Assembly (NCBI GenBank): GCA_041687355.1
Contig: JAWLCD010000010.1
Coordinates: 2,371-66,370 of the forward strand
DNA: 64,000 nt
Reading direction: 5' to 3'
From: Clostridia bacterium
GTDB lineage: Bacteria > Bacillota > Clostridia > Acetivibrionales > UBA4821
Below, in pieces: positions 836 to 60,085 of this stretch (its first letter is position 1; every line of letters starts with the position of its first letter). The position numbers and the translations under genes were made by a program. A model generated the notes under the pieces. That model did not search any database, was not told the origin of the DNA, and worked only from the letters and a program-made list of their open reading frames with translations.

Positions 836-1020
836 CTTATTCCTCCCGTTTTCTTAGATTTCTACTATAGAAATGTTCCTGCAAAACTCTCTTCAAACCC
901 TTTAATTTTGCAACTAAATTATTACGGCTATATTAAATAACTATAAAGATATGGTAAAATATCTTGAGCCTTTTCAACTTAGACTAAAAATTTTAACTTG
1001 TGCAATAAATAGTACAAGAA

Positions 1021-1067
1021 TTAGGTAGGTGGACGCGGCCATTCGCTTCGCTCAAGGAACTTCCCCC
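1021..1067 (+). repeat. RepE copy E1
   Basis: TTAGGTAGGTGGACGCGGCCATTCGCTTCGCTCAAGGAACTTCCCCC. Lies immediately 5' of the RepB left arm. Confidence 0.75.
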
Positions 1068-1076
1068 TTTGATTAA

Positions 1077-1334
1077 GGAAAATGAATTAACTGGCGAATA
1101 AGTTTATGGAGAGATCCAAATGCTATCGGGTAGCCCAGGGCATACAGCTGGGACTTGTGCCCAGCCAAAGCCCGGGCCTACAATTATGCTTAAATTTCAG
1201 GAAGAATTTACAGGACGTCAATTCTAGGAATTATTGAGCCAGGACGGCGAATTAATTCCGGTCTGAAATTTAGTATAACAAGCATCTAGTTTATCTTGAT
1301 TTCGTAATCCTTATGAGTGGCTAATTTATATTCC
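1077..1334 (+). repeat. RepB copy B1 (long hairpin arms 1077-1116 / 1286-1334) enclosing RepD (1117-1185) and RepC copy C1 (1186-1285)
   Basis: Arms GGAAAATGAATTAACTGGCGAATAAGTTTATGGAGAGATC and CTAGTTTATCTTGATTTCGTAATCCTTATGAGTGGCTAATTTATATTCC are imperfectly complementary. Confidence 0.8.
1186..1285 (+). repeat. RepC copy C1 (100 nt, predicted three-way junction)
   Basis: Outer stems ATGCTT/AAGCAT and AAATTTCAG/CTGAAATTT enclose the hairpins GAATTTAC..GTCAATTC and GGAATTATT..AATTAATTCC. Confidence 0.75.
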
Positions 1335-1370
1335 TAAAATATTTCAAAATACTGCACAAGTCAAACTAAA

Positions 1371-1405
1371 AATCTCGATTGACCTCAATCAATCGAGATT
1401 TTTTT
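1371..1405. terminator. bidirectional intrinsic terminator (sigA 3' end)
   Basis: AATCTCGATTG-ACCTCAAT-CAATCGAGATT, flanked by an A-run and a T-run. It abuts the sigA stop codon. Confidence 0.85.
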
Positions 1406-2483
1406 AATCAAGGTAATCCTTTAGCTTCTTGCTCCTACTGGGATGCCTCAGCTTTCTCAGTGCCTTTGCCTCAATCTGTCTGATTCTTTCCCTTGTTACA
1501 TTAAATTCCTTTCCAACCTCTTCAAGGGTTCTTGCACGTCCATCATCCAGTCCGAACCTGAGTCTAAGTACCTTCTCCTCTCTCGGAGTCAGTGTATCAA
1601 GTACGTCAATCAATTGTTCCTTAAGCAGGGTAAACGCTGCAGCCTCTGAAGGAGCAGGCGCATCATCATCAGGTATAAAATCACCCAAATGGCTGTCCTC
1701 TTCTTCACCTATAGGAGTTTCAAGTGACACGGGCTCCTGAGCTATCTTGAGGATTTCCCGTACCTTTTCGACCGAAAGGCCCATTTCATTAGCAATTTCT
1801 TCAGGCTGTGGCTCCCGTCCAAGCTCCTGTAGAAGCTGTCTTGAAACCCTGATAAGCTTATTTATTGTTTCAACCATGTGGACAGGAATCCTTATAGTTC
1901 TTGCCTGGTCAGCGATGGCTCTAGTAATTGCCTGCCTTATCCACCATGTAGCATAGGTACTGAATTTATATCCTTTTGTATAATCAAATTTTTCTACTGC
2001 CTTTATTAACCCAAGGTTACCCTCCTGAATCAAATCCAGGAAAAGCATCCCCCTACCGACATATCTCTTCGCAATACTGACAACAAGTCTGAGGTTGGCT
2101 TCAGCAAGTCTCCTTTTGGCCTCGGTATCACCCATCTCCATTTTCCTTGCGAGGTCAATCTCCTCTTCAGCAGAAAGAAGCGGTACTTTGCCTATTTCCT
2201 TGAGATACATCCTGACTGGGTCATCAATGCTAACCCCTTCAGGAACAGACATATCTTCAAGTTCCTCTTCGGTGAGCTGTAAATCCTCCAGTTCGGCTTC
2301 GATGTCTCCAATTATATCAATACCTACATTCTCCAGGGTATCATATATTTTTTCAATCTGATCGGGGTCAAGGTCTATTTCTTCAAGAGCATCCATAATT
2401 TCTTTATAGGTAAGCATTCCCTTTGCTTTGCCTCTCTCAATCAGCTCTTTTATTATAGCCTTTTTGCCTTCATTACCACTCAC
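1404..2483 (-). CDS. sigA: RNA polymerase primary sigma factor (sigma-70/SigA)
   Basis: 359 aa. Region 2 [19 protein letters not shown] and region 4.2 [20 protein letters not shown]. Lies downstream of dnaG, as in the Firmicute dnaG-sigA operon. Confidence 0.97.
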
Positions 2484-4320
2484 TGTTCACGCCTCCTTTC
2501 TGCATTGGTTTTTTCATAGCTCCAAGTGCAAATGTTAGTGTTTTTAATTCTTCATCCAATTTTCTCAATTCCTCAGCATTAATATTTTTTTCTTTCATCT
2601 GAACATGCAGTTCATGTATTCTGGCCTCAATCTTGCCTCTTTCAACTGTTCCCAGGAGTTCATCGGCAACCTTGTAATTATCTTCAAAATTGTTCTCACC
2701 CTGCATTATTTCTGAAAACAAATTTATTTCTTCCTGTTCTTCAAGCCTGTTCAGTATTTCTGAATGAGTGACTTCACCCAGTTGGTCATAAGCCTTAACT
2801 ATCTTCTCAACAATACATTTCCCGGGTTCCCATCTGAAATCATCAGGTTTAATCTTCTTACTGATGTATCCGAAGAGTTCCTTGTCTCCGAGGCTCATTA
2901 AAGCAATCAGCATTTTCTCGGTCTGTATGATTCTACGGTCCAACCTATTTTCTGTTTTGGCAGTTCTTGGTCTTTCTATCCTGGCATTCTCGGGAACCCT
3001 GAACCGCACCTTGTTCCTGCCATGTACCTGTTTGCTTATCTCTGCATATATCGGTTCAACAGCTATTCCGGTTTCCTCGGATATTTTCCTTACATAAGCA
3101 TCTCTTTCAATATTGTTCTGTACTTTGGCCAGCACTGCTGCCATTTTGTTTAAAAATCCAATCTTTCCTCTTACATCGTTTAAATCATGTTGTTCCTTGA
3201 GAATGTCAATCTTAAACTCAGCCAGGGATTTTGCTGATTTAACCAAATCCCTGAACAGCTTAACCCCTTTTTTCCTTACTAATTCATCAGGGTCTTTAGC
3301 ATCAAGGAGCTTTATAACCCTGACCGGTATTCCCATATCATTCAGGAGGTCCAATCCTCTCACTGCAGCATTCTGGCCTGCCGTATCGGCATCAAAGGAT
3401 ATTATTATTTCATCAAAATACTTCCTGAGCAGCCTACCCTGCTCCTGTGTAAAAGATGTCCCAAGAGATGCAGCTGCATTTTCAATCCCATGCTGGTACA
3501 GAGATATTACATCCATATATCCTTCCACTACAATTACTTTTTTCTCATTCGACTTCTTGGCCAGATTGAGGCCGTAAAGGTTTTTTCTTTTGTTGAACAC
3601 CAAGGTTTCAGGTGAGTTCAAATATTTAGGCATGGAATTGTCCAGTACTCTTCCACCAAACCCTATAACCCTGTCCCTGACATCAAGGATAGGAAAAATA
3701 ATTCTTGCTCTGAATTTATCATTTAAAATATTCCTTTTACTTTTATATGCCAGTCCAGCCTCAACTATTTCTTCTTCACCAAATCCTTTTAATTTCAGCA
3801 GGCTGGCAAGGTCATTATTTATTCCAAAAGCAAAGCCAAGTCCGAATCTCTTAATTATATCTGTAGAAATACCCCTGTCTTTCAGGTACCTTAATGCATC
3901 TGCAGCTTTTGAATCATTCAGGTTCTGGTGAAAATACCTGGCAGCTTCAAGGTTCATTTCCAGAATACGCTGTTTCAGTCTGACCTTTTCAGGTTGGGCG
4001 GCCATATCTCCTTCTTCAGGCAAATGCATTCCAACCCTTTCAGCAAGGTGTCTTACCGATTCCACAAATTCAAGGTTTTCTATTCTGCTGATAAAGTGGA
4101 ATACGTTGCCCCCTGTACCACATCCGAAACAATAATATATCTGCTTCTCAGGAGATACAGAGAATGAAGGAGTTTTCTCTGTATGGAAAGGACACAGACC
4201 GAAATAATTTCTCCCGCTTCGCTTTAACCTTACATATTCGGATATAACATCAACTATATCGTTGGAGCTTTTTACCTCTTCCAGGAGCTCATCTGAAAAA
4301 TAACCTGACATTAAAGACAC
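2473..4320 (-). CDS. dnaG: DNA primase
   Basis: Zinc-finger motif [26 protein letters not shown] and TOPRIM EGYMDV. Overlaps sigA by 11 nt. The ATG at 4311 is an alternative start. Confidence 0.95.
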
Positions 4321-6165: not shown

Positions 6166-6300
6166 ATAAACAGGATTCTTGGATTCAGGTGGAGTTTTTT
6201 TCTCCATCTGAATCTTAGAAGCCGTTATCCAGGGGCGTAGCGCCGCTTAGCTCCCGCTTGAAGAAGAGGGAGTCTTAGCGGCGGTAGTCATCGGATAAAA
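6166..6300 (+). repeat. RepA copy A1 (core only, 135 nt)
   Basis: ATAAACAGGATTCTTGGATTCAGGTGGAG...CTCCATCTGAATCTTAGAAGCCGTTATCCAGG..GTAGCGCCGCTTAG..GGAGTCTTAGCGGCGGTAGTCATCGGATAAAA. Sits in the divergent gap upstream of ldcA. Confidence 0.9.
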
Positions 6301-7258: not shown

Positions 7259-7286
7259 ATATTTAGAGTATTGAACCTATACGTAT

Positions 7287-7325
7287 CGTGACGTGGCCAT
7301 TCACTTCGTTCAAGGAACTTCCCCC
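7287..7325 (+). repeat. RepE copy E2
   Basis: CGTGACGTGGCCATTCACTTCGTTCAAGGAACTTCCCCC, 5' of B2. Confidence 0.75.
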
Positions 7326-7334
7326 TTTGGTTAA

Positions 7335-7412
7335 GGGAAATGAATTAACTGGAGAATAAGTTTATGGAGAAATCTGATTTCGTAATCCTTATGAGCTGTT
7401 AATTTATTTCCC
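7335..7412 (+). repeat. RepB copy B2 (minimal form; arms joined at the GAAATC-T-GATTTC palindrome)
   Basis: GGGAAATGAATTAACTGGAGAATAAGTTTATGGAGAAATCTGATTTCGTAATCCTTATGAGCTGTTAATTTATTTCCC. Confidence 0.8.
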
Positions 7413-7424
7413 TGTATATAAGAT

Positions 7425-7464
7425 AAAGGGGCACGGCTACTCGCTCCGCTCAAGGAGCTTCCCC
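7425..7464 (+). repeat. RepE copy E3 (diverged)
   Basis: AAAGGGGCACGGCTACTCGCTCCGCTCAAGGAGCTTCCCC, 3' of B2. Confidence 0.65.
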
Positions 7465-7487
7465 ACTCTCCACAAGTCAAATAAGCA

Positions 7488-9063: not shown

Positions 9064-9307
9064 ATAAACAGGATTCTAAGATTCAGGTGGAGTTTTGGCT
9101 AATAATTTCTTGTTATCTTTGATAACTTAGAAATCATTGTCCACCTTGTGTGCTCCAACTGAATCTTAGAATCCGTTATCCAGGAACGTAGCACCGCCGT
9201 AGACTACTAGTCGCTTGATTTCGAAGAAATCTTAGCGATAGTGTCCATCTTTGATGCTCCCACTTGAATGAGAGGGGAGTCTTAGCGGTGGTAGTCATCG
9301 GATAAAA
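9064..9307 (+). repeat. RepA copy A2 (244 nt; 54-nt modules in both hairpin apices: 9101-9154 and 9203-9256)
   Basis: Same core as A1 plus two insertions. Lies between rsmD and pdp. Confidence 0.9.
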
Positions 9308-9401
9308 ATCCTACTGATTATTTTATAATACATCTGGGAAATGTCAATTGTTTTTAGTTAAACCTTAGCTTGATTATGGAGATTCCCCCTTGTGATTTGA
9401 G

Positions 9402-9473
9402 AGGAAATGAATTAACCGGCGAATAAGTTTACCTTGATTTCGCAGTCCTTATGAGCGGTTAATTTACTTTCCC
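9402..9473 (+). repeat. RepB copy B3 (minimal form)
   Basis: AGGAAATGAATTAACCGGCGAATAAGTTTACCTTGATTTCGCAGTCCTTATGAGCGGTTAATTTACTTTCCC. Confidence 0.8.
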
Positions 9474-9529
9474 TGACTGATAAGAAAAAGGAGCTAAGGG
9501 TGCAATCCTTAACTCCTTCAGCATTAATT

Positions 9530-13119: not shown

Positions 13120-13160
13120 ACCAGCACCCCACAGTCAGTTAAAGCATTTAGCTTACCTAT

Positions 13161-13335
13161 ATAAACAGGATTCTTGGATTCAGGTGAAGTTTCTCCAACT
13201 GAATCTTAGAAGCCGTTATCCAGGAACTTATCGCCGCTTAGATTACTAGTCGCTTGATTTCAAAGAAATCTTAGCGATAGTGTCCATCTTTGATGCTCCC
13301 GAAGGGAGTCTTAGCGGCGGTAGTCATCGGACAAA
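13161..13335 (+). repeat. RepA copy A3 (175 nt; 54-nt module in hairpin 2 at 13242-13295)
   Basis: Lies between the FliK-like gene and rnhB. It contains the rnhB stop codon. Confidence 0.9.
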
Positions 13336-14031
13336 TCTTCTGGTGAAGCTCCTTCTATGTAATGGACATAAGCCCTTTCGTCTTATTGCTTCAATATGCT
13401 CTGCCGTACCATATCCCTTGTGCCTGGCAAATCCGTAGCCTTCATGTATTTTATCAATTTCTATAATCATTCTGTCTCTTGTAACCTTTGCAATTATGGA
13501 TGCAGCAGCAATGGACTGACTCAATGAGTCGCCTCTTACCATTGGTTTCTGCGGTACTTCTATATCTTCAAGACTTTCAGCATCAATAAACAGCACTTCG
13601 GGCTTAACCTCAAGCTGCTCCACAGCCTTCCTCATTGCAAGCCTGGTTGCGTTTAATATGTTTATTTCATCTATAATATTATTATCGACAATTCCAACTC
13701 CCCAGGCCACTGCTTCCCTTACAATAACATCAAACAATTCTTCCCTTTTCTTTTCACTTAATTTCTTCGAGTCATTGACCCCTTCTATCAATAAACCCTT
13801 TGGAAGTATGACGGCAGAAGCAACAACTGGGCCAGCAAGTGGCCCTCTACCTGCCTCGTCAATTCCGGCGATATATGTTATTCCATTGAGGTATTCTTCA
13901 TCCTCATACTGCATCAGTTTATGCAGCCTGTCCAGCTCTTTCTGTAGATACTTGCTGCCCTCTTTTGACCTTGTAGTAGTCTTTATTAGCTTATACTCCA
14001 CTTTTATCCCCCAATACTTCAGGCTCTTCAA
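13324..14031 (-). CDS. rnhB: ribonuclease HII
   Basis: Contains IAGIDEAGRGPLAGPVVASAV and DSKKLSEKKRE. The stop codon lies inside the 3' end of RepA copy A3. Confidence 0.94.
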   Translation of the reverse strand: MKSLKYWGIKVEYKLIKTTTRSKEGSKYLQKELDRLHKLMQYEDEEYLNGITYIAGIDEAGRGPLAGPVVASAVILPKGLLIEGVNDSKKLSEKKREELFDVIVREAVAWGVGIVDNNIIDEINILNATRLAMRKAVEQLEVKPEVLFIDAESLEDIEVPQKPMVRGDSLSQSIAAASIIAKVTRDRMIIEIDKIHEGYGFARHKGYGTAEHIEAIRRKGLCPLHRRSFTRRFVR

Positions 14032-14911: not shown

Positions 14912-14926
14912 ATTTCTTTAACGAAC

Positions 14927-14951
14927 GTGACAGAGAACCGTCCCCTGTCAC
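14927..14951. repeat. RepH hairpin H2
   Basis: GTGACAGAGAACCGTCCCCTGTCAC. Confidence 0.85.
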
Positions 14952-14968
14952 GTTTTAAGAAAAGAAAA

Positions 14969-14997
14969 GTGAGTCAAGGAACCGTCCCCTGACTCAC
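14969..14997 (-). terminator. rplS intrinsic terminator formed by RepH hairpin H3
   Basis: GTGAGTCAAGGAACCGTCCCCTGACTCAC. On the minus-strand RNA the hairpin is followed by UUUUCUUUUCUU. It starts 8 nt after the rplS stop. Confidence 0.8.
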
Positions 14998-15004
14998 TTT
15001 TATG

Positions 15005-32430: not shown

Positions 32431-32499
32431 AATATTAAATGGCTACTTATACTATCAATTGAATCACAATTTATTTCCTTGTACTGAATTAATCAAACA

Positions 32500-32524
32500 G
32501 TGACAAGGAACCGTCCCCTGTCAC
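32500..32524 (-). terminator. RepH hairpin H4 overlapping the nfnB stop codon (putative terminator)
   Basis: GTGACAAGGAACCGTCCCCTGTCAC. The U-tract on the minus strand is weak (UGUUUGAUU). Confidence 0.6.
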
Positions 32525-33942
32525 ACTTTCTTTGTCCTGATGTACTCATCAATAGACTTTGCTGCCTTTTTCCCGGCTCCCATGGCCTGGATAACAGTAG
32601 CTGCACCGGTTACAATATCTCCTCCGGCAAACACACCTTCCCTGCTTGTACGGCCTGTAGACTCGTCAGCCACAATGCCTCCATGCCTGGTAAGCTCTAA
32701 CCCAACGGTAGTACCAGCTATCAAAGGATTAGGGGTTGTCCCTATGGACATTATAACCGTTTCTACTTCGATTACGTGCTCAGAGCCCTGCTTTTCCACA
32801 GGCCTTCTTCTTCCGGATGCATCCGGTTCTCCGAGCTCCATTTCAATGCACTCCAGACCTTTCACCCATCCATCATCAGTCCCCAGTATTCTGACCGGGT
32901 TGGTGAGCAGTCTGAACTCAATACCTTCTTCCTTTGCATGATGCACCTCTTCCCGTCTGGCAGGCATCTCATCCTCAGACCGCCTGTATACTATATAGAC
33001 CTTATCAGCCCCCATCCTGACAGCACAGCGGGCGGCATCCATTGCAACATTTCCGCCTCCAACCACTGCAACCCTTCTACCCACCCTGACTGGTGTATCG
33101 CATTCAGGGAACCTGTAAGCTTTCATTAAATTTATTCTGGTTAGAAACTCGTTTGCAGACATCACACCGTTAAGACTTTCACCCGGTATATTCATGAATG
33201 CCGGAAGGCCTGCTCCCGAGCCAATAAAGACTGCATCATACCCCTGGGTGAATAGTTCATCAATACTCACTATTTTTCCAACAACCATGTTGGTTTTTAT
33301 TTCAACTCCCAGTTTTTTAACACTCTCAATATCTTTCTGAACAATATCCTTTGGAAGCCTAAATTCAGGGATTCCATACATCAGCACCCCTCCGGGTACA
33401 TGAAAAGCTTCAAAAACTGTAACCTTGTAACCTGACTTTGCAAGGTCTCCGGCGCATGTAATTCCTGCTGGACCGGAACCTACTACCGCTACTTTTCCCT
33501 TATTCTCATCTCGTTCCAGACTACAGGCTTCCTCTTCTACTCCCTGTGTACTGCCACCGCAGTAGTCGGCAGCAAAACGCTCAAGCCTTCCGATGCCAAC
33601 CGGTTCACCCTTCTTGCCTCTAAGACAGTACTTCTCACACTGACTCTCCTGTGGGCATACCCTGCCGCAAACAGCCGGTAAGCTGTTGGTTTCTATAATC
33701 TTTCTGTACGCTTTGTCAAACTCCTTTTTCTGTATTAGTTTTATGAACTCGGGTATTTGAACATTTACTGGACAACCTTGCACACACGGTGAGTTTTTAC
33801 ACTGCAGACAGCGCATAGCTTCCTCGACAGCCTGCTCCTGAGTGTACCCTAGTGCGACCTCTTCAAAATTCTTATTTCTAACCTCAGGCTCCTGTTCAGG
33901 GATAGGAACCTTTTTCTCCGACATATTAGGCATTTTCGTCAC
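32521..33942 (-). CDS. nfnB: NADH-dependent reduced ferredoxin:NADP+ oxidoreductase subunit B (GltD/SudA-like, 'homotetrameric glutamate synthase')
   Basis: 473 aa with two Cys clusters (CLQCKNSPCVQGCP, CGRVCPQESQCEKYC) and two GxGxxG dinucleotide folds (VVGSGPAG, VVGGGNVA). Confidence 0.88.
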   Translation of the reverse strand: MTKMPNMSEKKVPIPEQEPEVRNKNFEEVALGYTQEQAVEEAMRCLQCKNSPCVQGCPVNVQIPEFIKLIQKKEFDKAYRKIIETNSLPAVCGRVCPQESQCEKYCLRGKKGEPVGIGRLERFAADYCGGSTQGVEEEACSLERDENKGKVAVVGSGPAGITCAGDLAKSGYKVTVFEAFHVPGGVLMYGIPEFRLPKDIVQKDIESVKKLGVEIKTNMVVGKIVSIDELFTQGYDAVFIGSGAGLPAFMNIPGESLNGVMSANEFLTRINLMKAYRFPECDTPVRVGRRVAVVGGGNVAMDAARCAVRMGADKVYIVYRRSEDEMPARREEVHHAKEEGIEFRLLTNPVRILGTDDGWVKGLECIEMELGEPDASGRRRPVEKQGSEHVIEVETVIMSIGTTPNPLIAGTTVGLELTRHGGIVADESTGRTSREGVFAGGDIVTGAATVIQAMGAGKKAAKSIDEYIRTKKV

Positions 33943-46560: not shown

Positions 46561-46628
46561 TATACGTACCCCTTTCTGATAACTCTTTTAATGCTATTAT
46601 ATTCTTGAATTTGAGTTGTGCAATAGAT

Positions 46629-49508: not shown

Positions 49509-49553
49509 AAGGTAGGGGGACGCGACCATTCGCTTCGCTCAAGGAACGTCCCC
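49509..49553 (+). repeat. RepE copy E4 (best stem GGGGACG/CGTCCCC)
   Basis: AAGGTAGGGGGACGCGACCATTCGCTTCGCTCAAGGAACGTCCCC, 5' of B4. Confidence 0.75.
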
Positions 49554-49610
49554 TTCTGATTATAGGGAAGATGAATTTAACTGGCGAATAAGTTTGCGGA
49601 GAAATCTTAG

Positions 49611-49741
49611 ATAAACAGGATTCTTGGGTTCAGGTGGAGTTTTGGCTCCAACTGAATCTTAGAAGCCGTTATCCAGGGACGTAGCGCCGCTTTTCTATAA
49701 TATTAAAGCTGGAGTCTTAGCGGCGGTAGTCATCGGATAAA
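49611..49741 (+). repeat. RepA copy A5 (core only, 131 nt), nested inside RepB copy B4
   Basis: The core sequence is flanked by the RepB left arm and RepC. Confidence 0.9.
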
Positions 49742-49753
49742 TTATGCGAAGTT

Positions 49754-49853
49754 ATGCTCAAATTTCAGGAAGAATTGACAGGACGTCAATTCTAGGAATT
49801 ATTGAGCCACGATGGCGAATTAATTCCGGTCTGAAATTTAGTATAACAAGCAT
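49754..49853 (+). repeat. RepC copy C2
   Basis: Differs from C1 at only a handful of positions. Confidence 0.75.
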
Positions 49854-49958
49854 CTAGTTTATCTTGATTTCGCAGTCCTTATGAGTTGCTAATTCATTTT
49901 CCCTAACTAATGAATTACCCCTTAATCACATTATATGACCTGCGTATCGGGAGGGTTC

Positions 49959-50137
49959 ATAAACAGGATTCTTGGATTCAGGTGGAGTTTTTGGCTCCAT
50001 CTGAATCTTAGAAGCCGTTATCCAGGGACGTAGCGCCGCTTAGACTACTAGTCGCTTGTTTTCAAAGAAATCTTAGCGATAGTGTCCATCTTTGATGCTC
50101 CCGAGGGGAGTCTTAGCGGCGGTAGTCATCGGATAAA
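49959..50137 (+). repeat. RepA copy A6 (179 nt; 54-nt module in hairpin 2 at 50044-50097)
   Basis: Core plus module. Lies just upstream (on the + strand) of the yebC terminator hairpin. Confidence 0.9.
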
Positions 50138-50145
50138 CTGCAAAA

Positions 50146-56782: not shown

Positions 56783-56827
56783 AAGGTAGAGGGACGCGTC
56801 ATTCGCTTCGCCCAAGAAACGTCCTCC
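56783..56827 (+). repeat. RepE copy E5
   Basis: AAGGTAGAGGGACGCGTCATTCGCTTCGCCCAAGAAACGTCCTCC, in the cbiM-cbiQ gap. Confidence 0.75.
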
Positions 56828-56837
56828 TTGATTACCA

Positions 56838-56874
56838 TGGTCACACCATTCACTTCACTCAAGGAACTTCCCCC
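56838..56874 (+). repeat. RepE copy E6
   Basis: TGGTCACACCATTCACTTCACTCAAGGAACTTCCCCC, in tandem with E5. Confidence 0.7.
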
Positions 56875-56896
56875 TTTGATTAAATGAGTCAATCTG

Positions 56897-59895: not shown

Positions 59896-60084
59896 ATAAA
59901 CAGGATTCTTAGGTTCAGGTGGAGTTTTAGGCTAATAATTTCTTGTTATCTTTGATAACTTAGAAATCATTGTCCACCTTGTGTGCTCCGACTGAATCTT
60001 AGAAGCCGTTATCCAGGGACGTAGCGCCGCTTCTCCCTCACTTGAAGAAGAGGGGAGTCTTAGCGGCGGTAGTCATCGGATAAA
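59896..60084 (+). repeat. RepA copy A7 (189 nt; 54-nt module in hairpin 1 at 59934-59987)
   Basis: Fills the whole gap between the two PP2C genes. Confidence 0.9.
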
Positions 60085-60085
60085 A

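Follow-up and report, generated by a model that had tools for sequence, protein, structure and literature searches.

The TwoAYGGAY motif (Rfam RF01731) is a structured RNA whose basal stem, P1, is described as "often very large, e.g. 24 base pairs" (Weinberg et al., 2010; PMC2864571). The sole published proposal for its role is that of an RNA decoy which sequesters CsrA. According to a preprint of September 2026, the motif is highly multi-copy, repeat-flanked and "mobile-element-like", mainly in Pseudomonas, its basal stem is "elongated" in Bacillota, and its mode of expansion is "unresolved". The TwoAYGGAY literature that we examined contains no account of inverted-repeat ends that occur together with a duplicated target and an empty orthologous site, of the replacement of part of P1 by a module like RepD, or of a nested insertion like the D1-type repeat (both described below). 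Other systems that invite comparison are short interspersed elements such as MITEs, Correia/NEMIS, RUP, BOX and ERIC, the CsrB/RsmZ small RNAs, and the REP/REPIN-RAYT systems. REP sequences consist of a GTAG head followed by a palindrome. REPINs are not known to have inverted-repeat ends flanked by an 8-9-bp duplication.

From our analysis of a 64-kb stretch of Clostridia DNA (64,000 nucleotides, hereafter the window; G+C = 41.8%), a 374-bp block at 992-1365, with a largest ORF of only 43 aa, is very probably a non-autonomous inverted-repeat element that is moved in trans and carries a TwoAYGGAY unit [Table 1]. The block sits inside the 568-nt spacer between sigA and a hexapeptide-repeat gene (836-1403), which is closed by the sigA terminator hairpin (1368-1403), a structure able to terminate in both directions. 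A sequence-only reading had described the block as a composite of modules named RepB to RepE, bracketed by an outer inverted repeat, and all the strings that it quoted were found where it had placed them. The SigA protein of the window has 99% amino acid identity to that of the MAG "Clostridia bacterium 30dZY2.bin.108" (the sister MAG) and is 91-92% identical to those of Pseudobacteroides and Acetivibrio relatives, and an exact-protein look-up gave no recorded identical protein for SigA or for a 145-aa neighbour. Orthologous loci were reached via homologues of the window proteins. The copies outside the window all come from one related and fragmented MAG (loci L001-L020), in which 6-7 of the 20 loci have their repeats at contig ends.

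Table 1. Features of the sigA-hexapeptide spacer, its flanking genes and the second TwoAYGGAY element (window coordinates)
Feature	Position	Strand	Remarks
Hexapeptide-repeat gene	50-835	minus	Pfam domain seen on orthologue
Target-site duplication, left copy	983-991	.	ACTAAAAAT; 8-bp core CTAAAAAT, 984-991
Left terminal inverted repeat	992-1007	+	TTTAACTTGTGCAATA; same end in L001, L009, L010
RepE module	1023-1075	+	GTAG-headed hairpin, conserved loop CCATTCGCTTCGCTCAAGGA
RepB left arm, P1 5' strand	1077-1116	+	pairs with 1286-1343
RepD, GC-rich extended hairpin	1117-1185	+	replaces canonical 21 nt TTAGATAAACTATGCGAAGTT of P1 5' strand
TwoAYGGAY RNA motif (Rfam RF01731)	1178-1305	+	cmscan 45.5 bits, gathering score 43
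TwoAYGGAY core	1186-1285	+	two hairpins, loops ACAGGACGU and CCAGGACGG, common stem
RepB right arm, P1 3' strand	1286-1343	+	pattern TGATTTCGYARTCCTTATGAG retrieves 20 loci
Right terminal inverted repeat	1350-1365	-	TTTGACTTGTGCAGTA on minus strand
Target-site duplication, right copy	1365-1373	.	ACTAAAAAT; first A common to inverted repeat
sigA	1404-2483	minus	
dnaG	2473-4320	minus	
Second TwoAYGGAY element	49563-49911	+	same RepB stem; ~135-nt D1-type repeat nested in P1 5' strand (~49610-49742)

The outer repeat reported previously, AACTTGTGCA (995-1004) against TGCACAAGTC (1353-1362), is complementary at 9 of 10 positions, and it proved to be longer than noted, with 14 of 16 positions complementary between the two 16-bp ends (consensus TTTGACTTGTGCAATA). 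Allowing up to three mismatches, this 16-mer has six matches in the window against 1.15 expected, and none of 100 shuffles reached six. The 9-bp sequence immediately outside is identical on the two sides, its right copy abutting and overlapping the A-tract of the sigA terminator. The view that the composite is bracketed by an inverted repeat thus stands as far as discrete and meaningful ends are concerned, but the duplication and the empty site mark them as the ends of an insertion and not as the stem of an RNA.

The empty site is found in the sister MAG (contig JAWLGL010000065.1, L023), where the orthologous dnaG, sigA and hexapeptide genes are present with a spacer of 185 nt and no element. 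This spacer reads ...CAGTCCAA ACTAAAAAT TCTCGATTG..., with one target copy, and once 992-1373 is removed from the window the two spacers align end to end, at 85% identity, around the single ACTAAAAAT. An assembly artefact was rejected, the MAG spacer being contiguous with exactly one target copy retained. In a farther relative (SigA 94% identical) the block is also absent. Gain in the lineage of the window is the parsimonious reading, with loss in the MAG as the alternative. The absence of the element from the site of a close relative indicates that the window copy is dispensable. We also noticed that at L026 (3247-3660), from a more distant relative (SigA 94% identical), two small ORFs in tandem duplication occupy the sigA-hexapeptide spacer instead, on the strand opposite to its neighbours, so that the site is a hotspot for insertions of different kinds.

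At unrelated loci, the same ends bound three further copies, of 296 bp in L001, 351 bp in L010 and 159 bp in L009. Each of the four copies, the window copy included (159-374 bp), has its own flanking direct repeats of 8-9 bp with 0-1 mismatch (ACTAAAAAT twice and exact, AAAACTTGA/AAAGCTTGA, TTCAGGAAA/TTTAGGAAA, and TTGCTATA/TTACTATA). The inverted-repeat ends, the duplication, the empty site and the further copies therefore identify the block 992-1365 as MITE-like. With MITEs, Correia/NEMIS, RUP, BOX and ERIC it shares the short length (159-374 bp), the lack of coding capacity, the inverted repeats and duplication, the multi-copy and intergenic distribution, the frequent proximity to terminators, the long hairpins, and the mosaic variants and deletion derivatives. 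It differs from them in carrying an RNA motif with covariance support and a distribution across phyla, not a simple long palindrome, and in a strong orientation bias relative to the neighbouring genes. A lone sequence resembling the inverted repeat, TTTGAGTTGTGCAATA (one mismatch), lies in a short spacer at 46610-46625 with no partner nearby.

Against the MITE-like reading, recognisable inverted repeats are present in only 4 of the ~20 elements, and most TwoAYGGAY copies lie in other repeat contexts. In another lineage, the Psychromonas ingrahamii copies of the Rfam seed are embedded among different repeats; direct repeats resembling AACCAAT were seen around them, and an inverted repeat was not. 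We scouted for an autonomous relative of the element, and neither the 64-kb window nor ~150 kb of MAG loci contained a pair of ends 0.7-4 kb apart with a transposase between them. The whole block gave nothing in blastn searches of phage and plasmid collections. In viral contigs, a core 24-mer and a RepE 20-mer were without a match, and the 16-mer of the inverted repeat had 48 single matches, approximately the estimated chance number. One apparent inverted-repeat pair in a viral contig (L055) was discarded, as it lies within ordinary coding genes. A literature string search for the inverted repeat returned SARS-CoV-2 coincidences only.

For RepC, the core of the cargo, a match to a known RNA family had been named as an outcome that would refute the sequence-only reading; RepC is indeed not new, being the core of the Rfam TwoAYGGAY motif. 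Its recurrence was confirmed at 49752-49902 (94% identity across 151 nt), where the cmscan match to the family (49731-49878) scores 56.8 bits, and these two TwoAYGGAY matches are all that an Rfam scan of the 64 kb yielded. The flagged copy is only narrowly above the gathering score because RepD removes part of P1. The three-way junction predicted for RepC is supported by folding (z = -4.4 for 1178-1305): two consecutive hairpins on one basal stem appear in the MFE and centroid folds and in the consensus fold of seven copies, and the outer stems ATGCTT/AAGCAT and AAATTTCAG/CTGAAATTT are exact complements. Both loops of the window copy read AGGAC; they keep GGA but fall one base short of AYGGAY, lacking the Y that should separate A from GGA, where the covariance-model alignment has a gap. 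In window copy 2 and in roughly half of the copies from the MAG, loop 2 is CCACGAUGG (ACGAU) and contains no GGA. Hairpin 2 contains a tandem G-A internal loop (UGAGCC...GGCGAA). A sigma-70-like match (TTGACA or TTTACA, 16 nt, AATTAT; 9-10 of 12 positions) lies inside the core in every copy examined (window 1207-1234, L001 2644-2671, and L010 2351-2378), probably as a mere by-product of the hairpin sequences.

The RepB arms do flank the insert, as the sequence-only reading had claimed, but they are not a separate element on either side of RepC; they form the elongated basal stem of the TwoAYGGAY family. A scan for the RepB-right pattern over 185,579 species, each represented by a single genome, retrieved 20 matching contigs, all from the sister MAG, and in 16 of these a TwoAYGGAY match (43-73 bits) lies directly upstream of the pattern; RepB is therefore the P1 of the family. 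The arms occur four or five times in the window. The canonical unit is ~217 nt long and consists of RepB-left, TTAGATAAACTATGCGAAGTTATGCT, the two hairpins, AGCATCTAGTTTATCT and RepB-right, the arms and the inner segments together giving a P1 of ~60 pairs below the junction. Seven canonical copies fit an 83-pair consensus structure in which 97% of cells are paired, as against 30-46% with slid partners. Six pairs are altered on both sides, mostly in the RepB helix, which is kept in the seven copies with 5 of its 26 pairs altered on both sides. In the flagged copy, the fold of the 271 nt from 1073 to 1343 is one rod that bears the RepD hairpin and ends in the three-way junction (-83.6 kcal/mol, z = -4.9), compared with -74.4 kcal/mol (z = -3.6) for the reverse strand. 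The suggestion that the whole block is one branched fold is correct in that it can fold so, and goes astray in mixing DNA-level ends with an RNA-like cargo.

Compared with the described TwoAYGGAY RNAs, the cargo scores above the gathering threshold and has the two adjacent GGA-loop hairpins on a common stem, the very long P1 and the tandem G-A internal loop in hairpin 2, and it is multi-copy, intergenic and repeat-flanked with an elongated stem, as reported for Bacillota. It is unlike them in its AGGAC loops, shorter by one base, in the loss of the second GGA from many copies of the lineage, in the ~60 pairs of P1, and, for the flagged copy, in the 69-nt GC-rich hairpin that replaces part of P1 and in its position within an element whose ends are inverted repeats and whose target site is duplicated. 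RepC and RepB are accordingly already known (Weinberg et al., 2010).

RepD is 69 nt long and folds at -29.1 kcal/mol (z = -2.5). Its G+C content is indeed out of character (58% vs. 36% for the spacer), and its segments GCTGGG and CCCAGC are exact complements; the other proposed pairing, TAGCCCAGGG with CCCGGGCCTA, forms only with a bulge. A match of RepD to a known RNA family had been envisaged, and Rfam gave none even at E = 10. RepD is single-copy within the window, as had been said, but it is not unique: a copy with 96% identity is found at L004 (2038-2105), at the same position in the same RepB-left/RepD/core/RepB-right unit, and was the sole match of a blastn-short search against all retrieved DNA. 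A 21-mer scan of metagenome contigs gave two chance matches only, inside GC-rich coding sequence. The L004 locus is not orthologous to that of the window and adjoins a comM-like gene, and its homology to the window ends at the RepB arms. This restriction of the homology to the stretch from RepB-left to RepB-right indicates that the inner unit also spreads or recombines independently of the ends, and the inner modules may therefore spread by another route too, e.g., hairpin-directed or recombinational.

RepD is not the only module at this stem position, where a D1-type repeat (~135 nt) is nested in window copy 2, L003 and L016; the basal stem thus tolerates replacement by whole modules. Bare RepB hairpins occur at 7331-7421 of the window and in L013 and L018, and deletion derivatives at window 9398-9481, in L006 and as the mini-copy of L009. 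In L012 (~2780-3000, minus), L007 (1-48) and L015 (3324-3381), an unrelated module with internal tandem repeats, ending in ...CTCTCCCATCAAGGGAGAGGGAGCAT, takes the place of the two-hairpin core inside the RepB stem. A degenerate copy at window 7259-7483 consists of RepE, a core-less RepB hairpin, a second RepE and the right end CCACAAGTCAAA, its left inverted repeat being unrecognisable. The recurrence of the right-hand tail CACAAGTCAAA, reported previously, was verified at 7471-7481.

RepE is present six times in the window (1023-1075, 7281-7333, 7421-7473, 49510-49562, 56783-56835, and 56830-56882), always in direct orientation and with the form GGGGGACG...CGTCCCCC around its conserved loop. 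It is placed 5' and/or 3' of TwoAYGGAY units, at times in tandem without them, and it adjoins elements in L001, L008, L010 and L012. The copy at 1023-1075, taken alone, folds no better than shuffles. The layout of RepE resembles that of the REP arrays beside TwoAYGGAY in Pseudomonas fluorescens SBW25. The L008 contig carries csrA (~3286-3520, +) and has at its end a TwoAYGGAY element with two RepE copies behind it. The D1-type repeats are a second, very stable structured family on the + strand (window 6166-6300, 9064-9307, 13157-13336, 49610-49742, 49959-50138, and 59896-60085), with the start ATAAACAGGATTC, the end CATCGGATAAA, and two long hairpins with variable tips. They have no Rfam match, and fold at -68.7 kcal/mol (z = -8.4) on the + strand vs. 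-53.5 kcal/mol on the minus strand. The sister MAG lacks the D1-type copy of ~49964-50138 at its orthologous site (L002), and this copy has no clean inverted repeats. Further hairpins, three in number, at 14922-15000 and 32495-32529 have the common loop AAGGAACCGTCCCC (repeat family D12), which resembles the 3' half of RepE.

The modules show a pronounced strand bias. The ~19 module copies of the window lie without exception on the + strand (G+C skew -0.17), and 85% of the window genes are on the minus strand; by heuristic ORF calls, the flanking ORFs run against the Rfam-sense strand at 16 of the 19 loci where the orientation is unambiguous. On the Rfam-sense strand, the canonical alignment contains 36 G-U pairs as against 6 A-C mismatches. 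This excess fits selection of the structure on that strand as a single-stranded nucleic acid. The orientation bias may come from replication, from selection against sense insertions, or from the mechanism of movement. Against a MITE reading alone, we note that a strand bias relative to flanking ORFs is unexpected for a simple cut-and-paste element.

Conceivably, the block could be primarily a small-RNA gene, its mobility incidental, with a + strand TwoAYGGAY RNA that is ended by the bidirectional terminator and titrates CsrA via its two GGA loops. We regard this as unlikely. In its favour are the GGA retained in both loops of the window copy, the presence of csrA in the sister MAG, the terminator downstream on the + strand, and the G-U excess and better + strand fold, which point to a strand-specific folded single strand. 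Two GGA sites at such spacing suit a CsrA dimer, and GGA in the loops of short hairpins together with csrA in the lineage recalls CsrB/RsmZ. The latter, however, are each one highly expressed gene, whereas here two sites per unit are dispersed over many loci, a search for a defined promoter found none, and the second GGA is frequently absent. A promoter-like TTGACT-17-GAAAAT is present in L001 and L009 only, the window copy matching at 8 of 12 positions and L010 not at all, and this inconsistency, the loops one base short of AYGGAY, the GGA-less loop 2 of window copy 2 and of roughly half of the copies in the MAG, and the element missing from the same site in a close relative all argue against a primary small-RNA gene. 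Such a role is nevertheless compatible with the mobile-element explanation, as a function of the cargo. Far less credible is that the block is one large locus-specific structured RNA acting in cis on sigA (as a 3' UTR) or on the hexapeptide-repeat gene (as a 5' leader), a reading which we hold to be highly improbable. It draws on the good fold of the 271-nt stretch and its location between two genes; against it, parts of the block recur at unrelated loci and both neighbouring genes are encoded on the strand opposite to the Rfam-sense one. A locus-specific sigA regulatory RNA was rejected on the grounds that the orthologous spacer is empty in the relative with 99% identical SigA.

A further reading is that the inner modules (RepB with the core, RepD, RepE and D1-type) move as single-stranded DNA hairpins, driven by an enzyme of the Y1/HUH class (IS200/IS605 or REP-RAYT type) or by inter-repeat recombination, with the inverted-repeat element as one vehicle of several. 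In its favour, each module is a stable hairpin, the modules of the window lie all on one strand, and G-T pairing is asymmetric between strands. RepE and RepD open with GTAG and continue as a GC-rich palindrome in AT-rich spacers, which is REP-like, and in P. fluorescens SBW25 REP arrays stand at a fixed position beside TwoAYGGAY. Moreover, the RepD-bearing unit is found in two different outer contexts, and the D1-type copy that the window has and the MAG lacks is without clean inverted repeats. We nevertheless consider this reading quite improbable for the block. Unlike REP/REPIN-RAYT sequences, the block is bounded by classical inverted repeats and an 8-9-bp duplication, and RepD is rare, known in two copies only. 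The best-folding strand, furthermore, appears antisense to mostly co-oriented genes, which is not the lagging-strand-template bias to be expected given the replication direction that we infer.

Under the preferred explanation of a mobile element with a TwoAYGGAY cargo, a 374-bp MITE-like element would have inserted beside the sigA terminator and created the 8-9-bp target-site duplication, being moved by a transposase presumably encoded elsewhere. Its cargo is a complete TwoAYGGAY of the Bacillota type, with a very long basal stem topped by the two short GGA-loop hairpins. The RepD hairpin has taken the place of part of the 5' strand of P1, and RepE lies between the left end and the stem. The cargo, if it acts at all, would do so as a folded single strand of + sense. 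As a broader and more tentative proposition, about which we are doubtful, TwoAYGGAY may, at least in this clostridial lineage, be the structured cargo of a DDE-type MITE (16-bp inverted repeats, 8-9-bp duplication), its long stem serving as a landing pad for swapped modules such as RepD, D1-type repeats and the alternative core.

For annotation, this means that the composite downstream of sigA should be seen as a recent mobile insertion and not as a conserved sigA regulatory RNA. Since its description in 2010 TwoAYGGAY has remained an orphan among structured RNAs, and the locus offers a concrete means of its spread; the clean filled/empty pair with ends and duplication therefore makes the element a directly testable vehicle for spread in Bacillota. 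If the proposition of a TwoAYGGAY cargo on a MITE is true, candidate CsrA-binding hairpins would be scattered through genomes by transposition.
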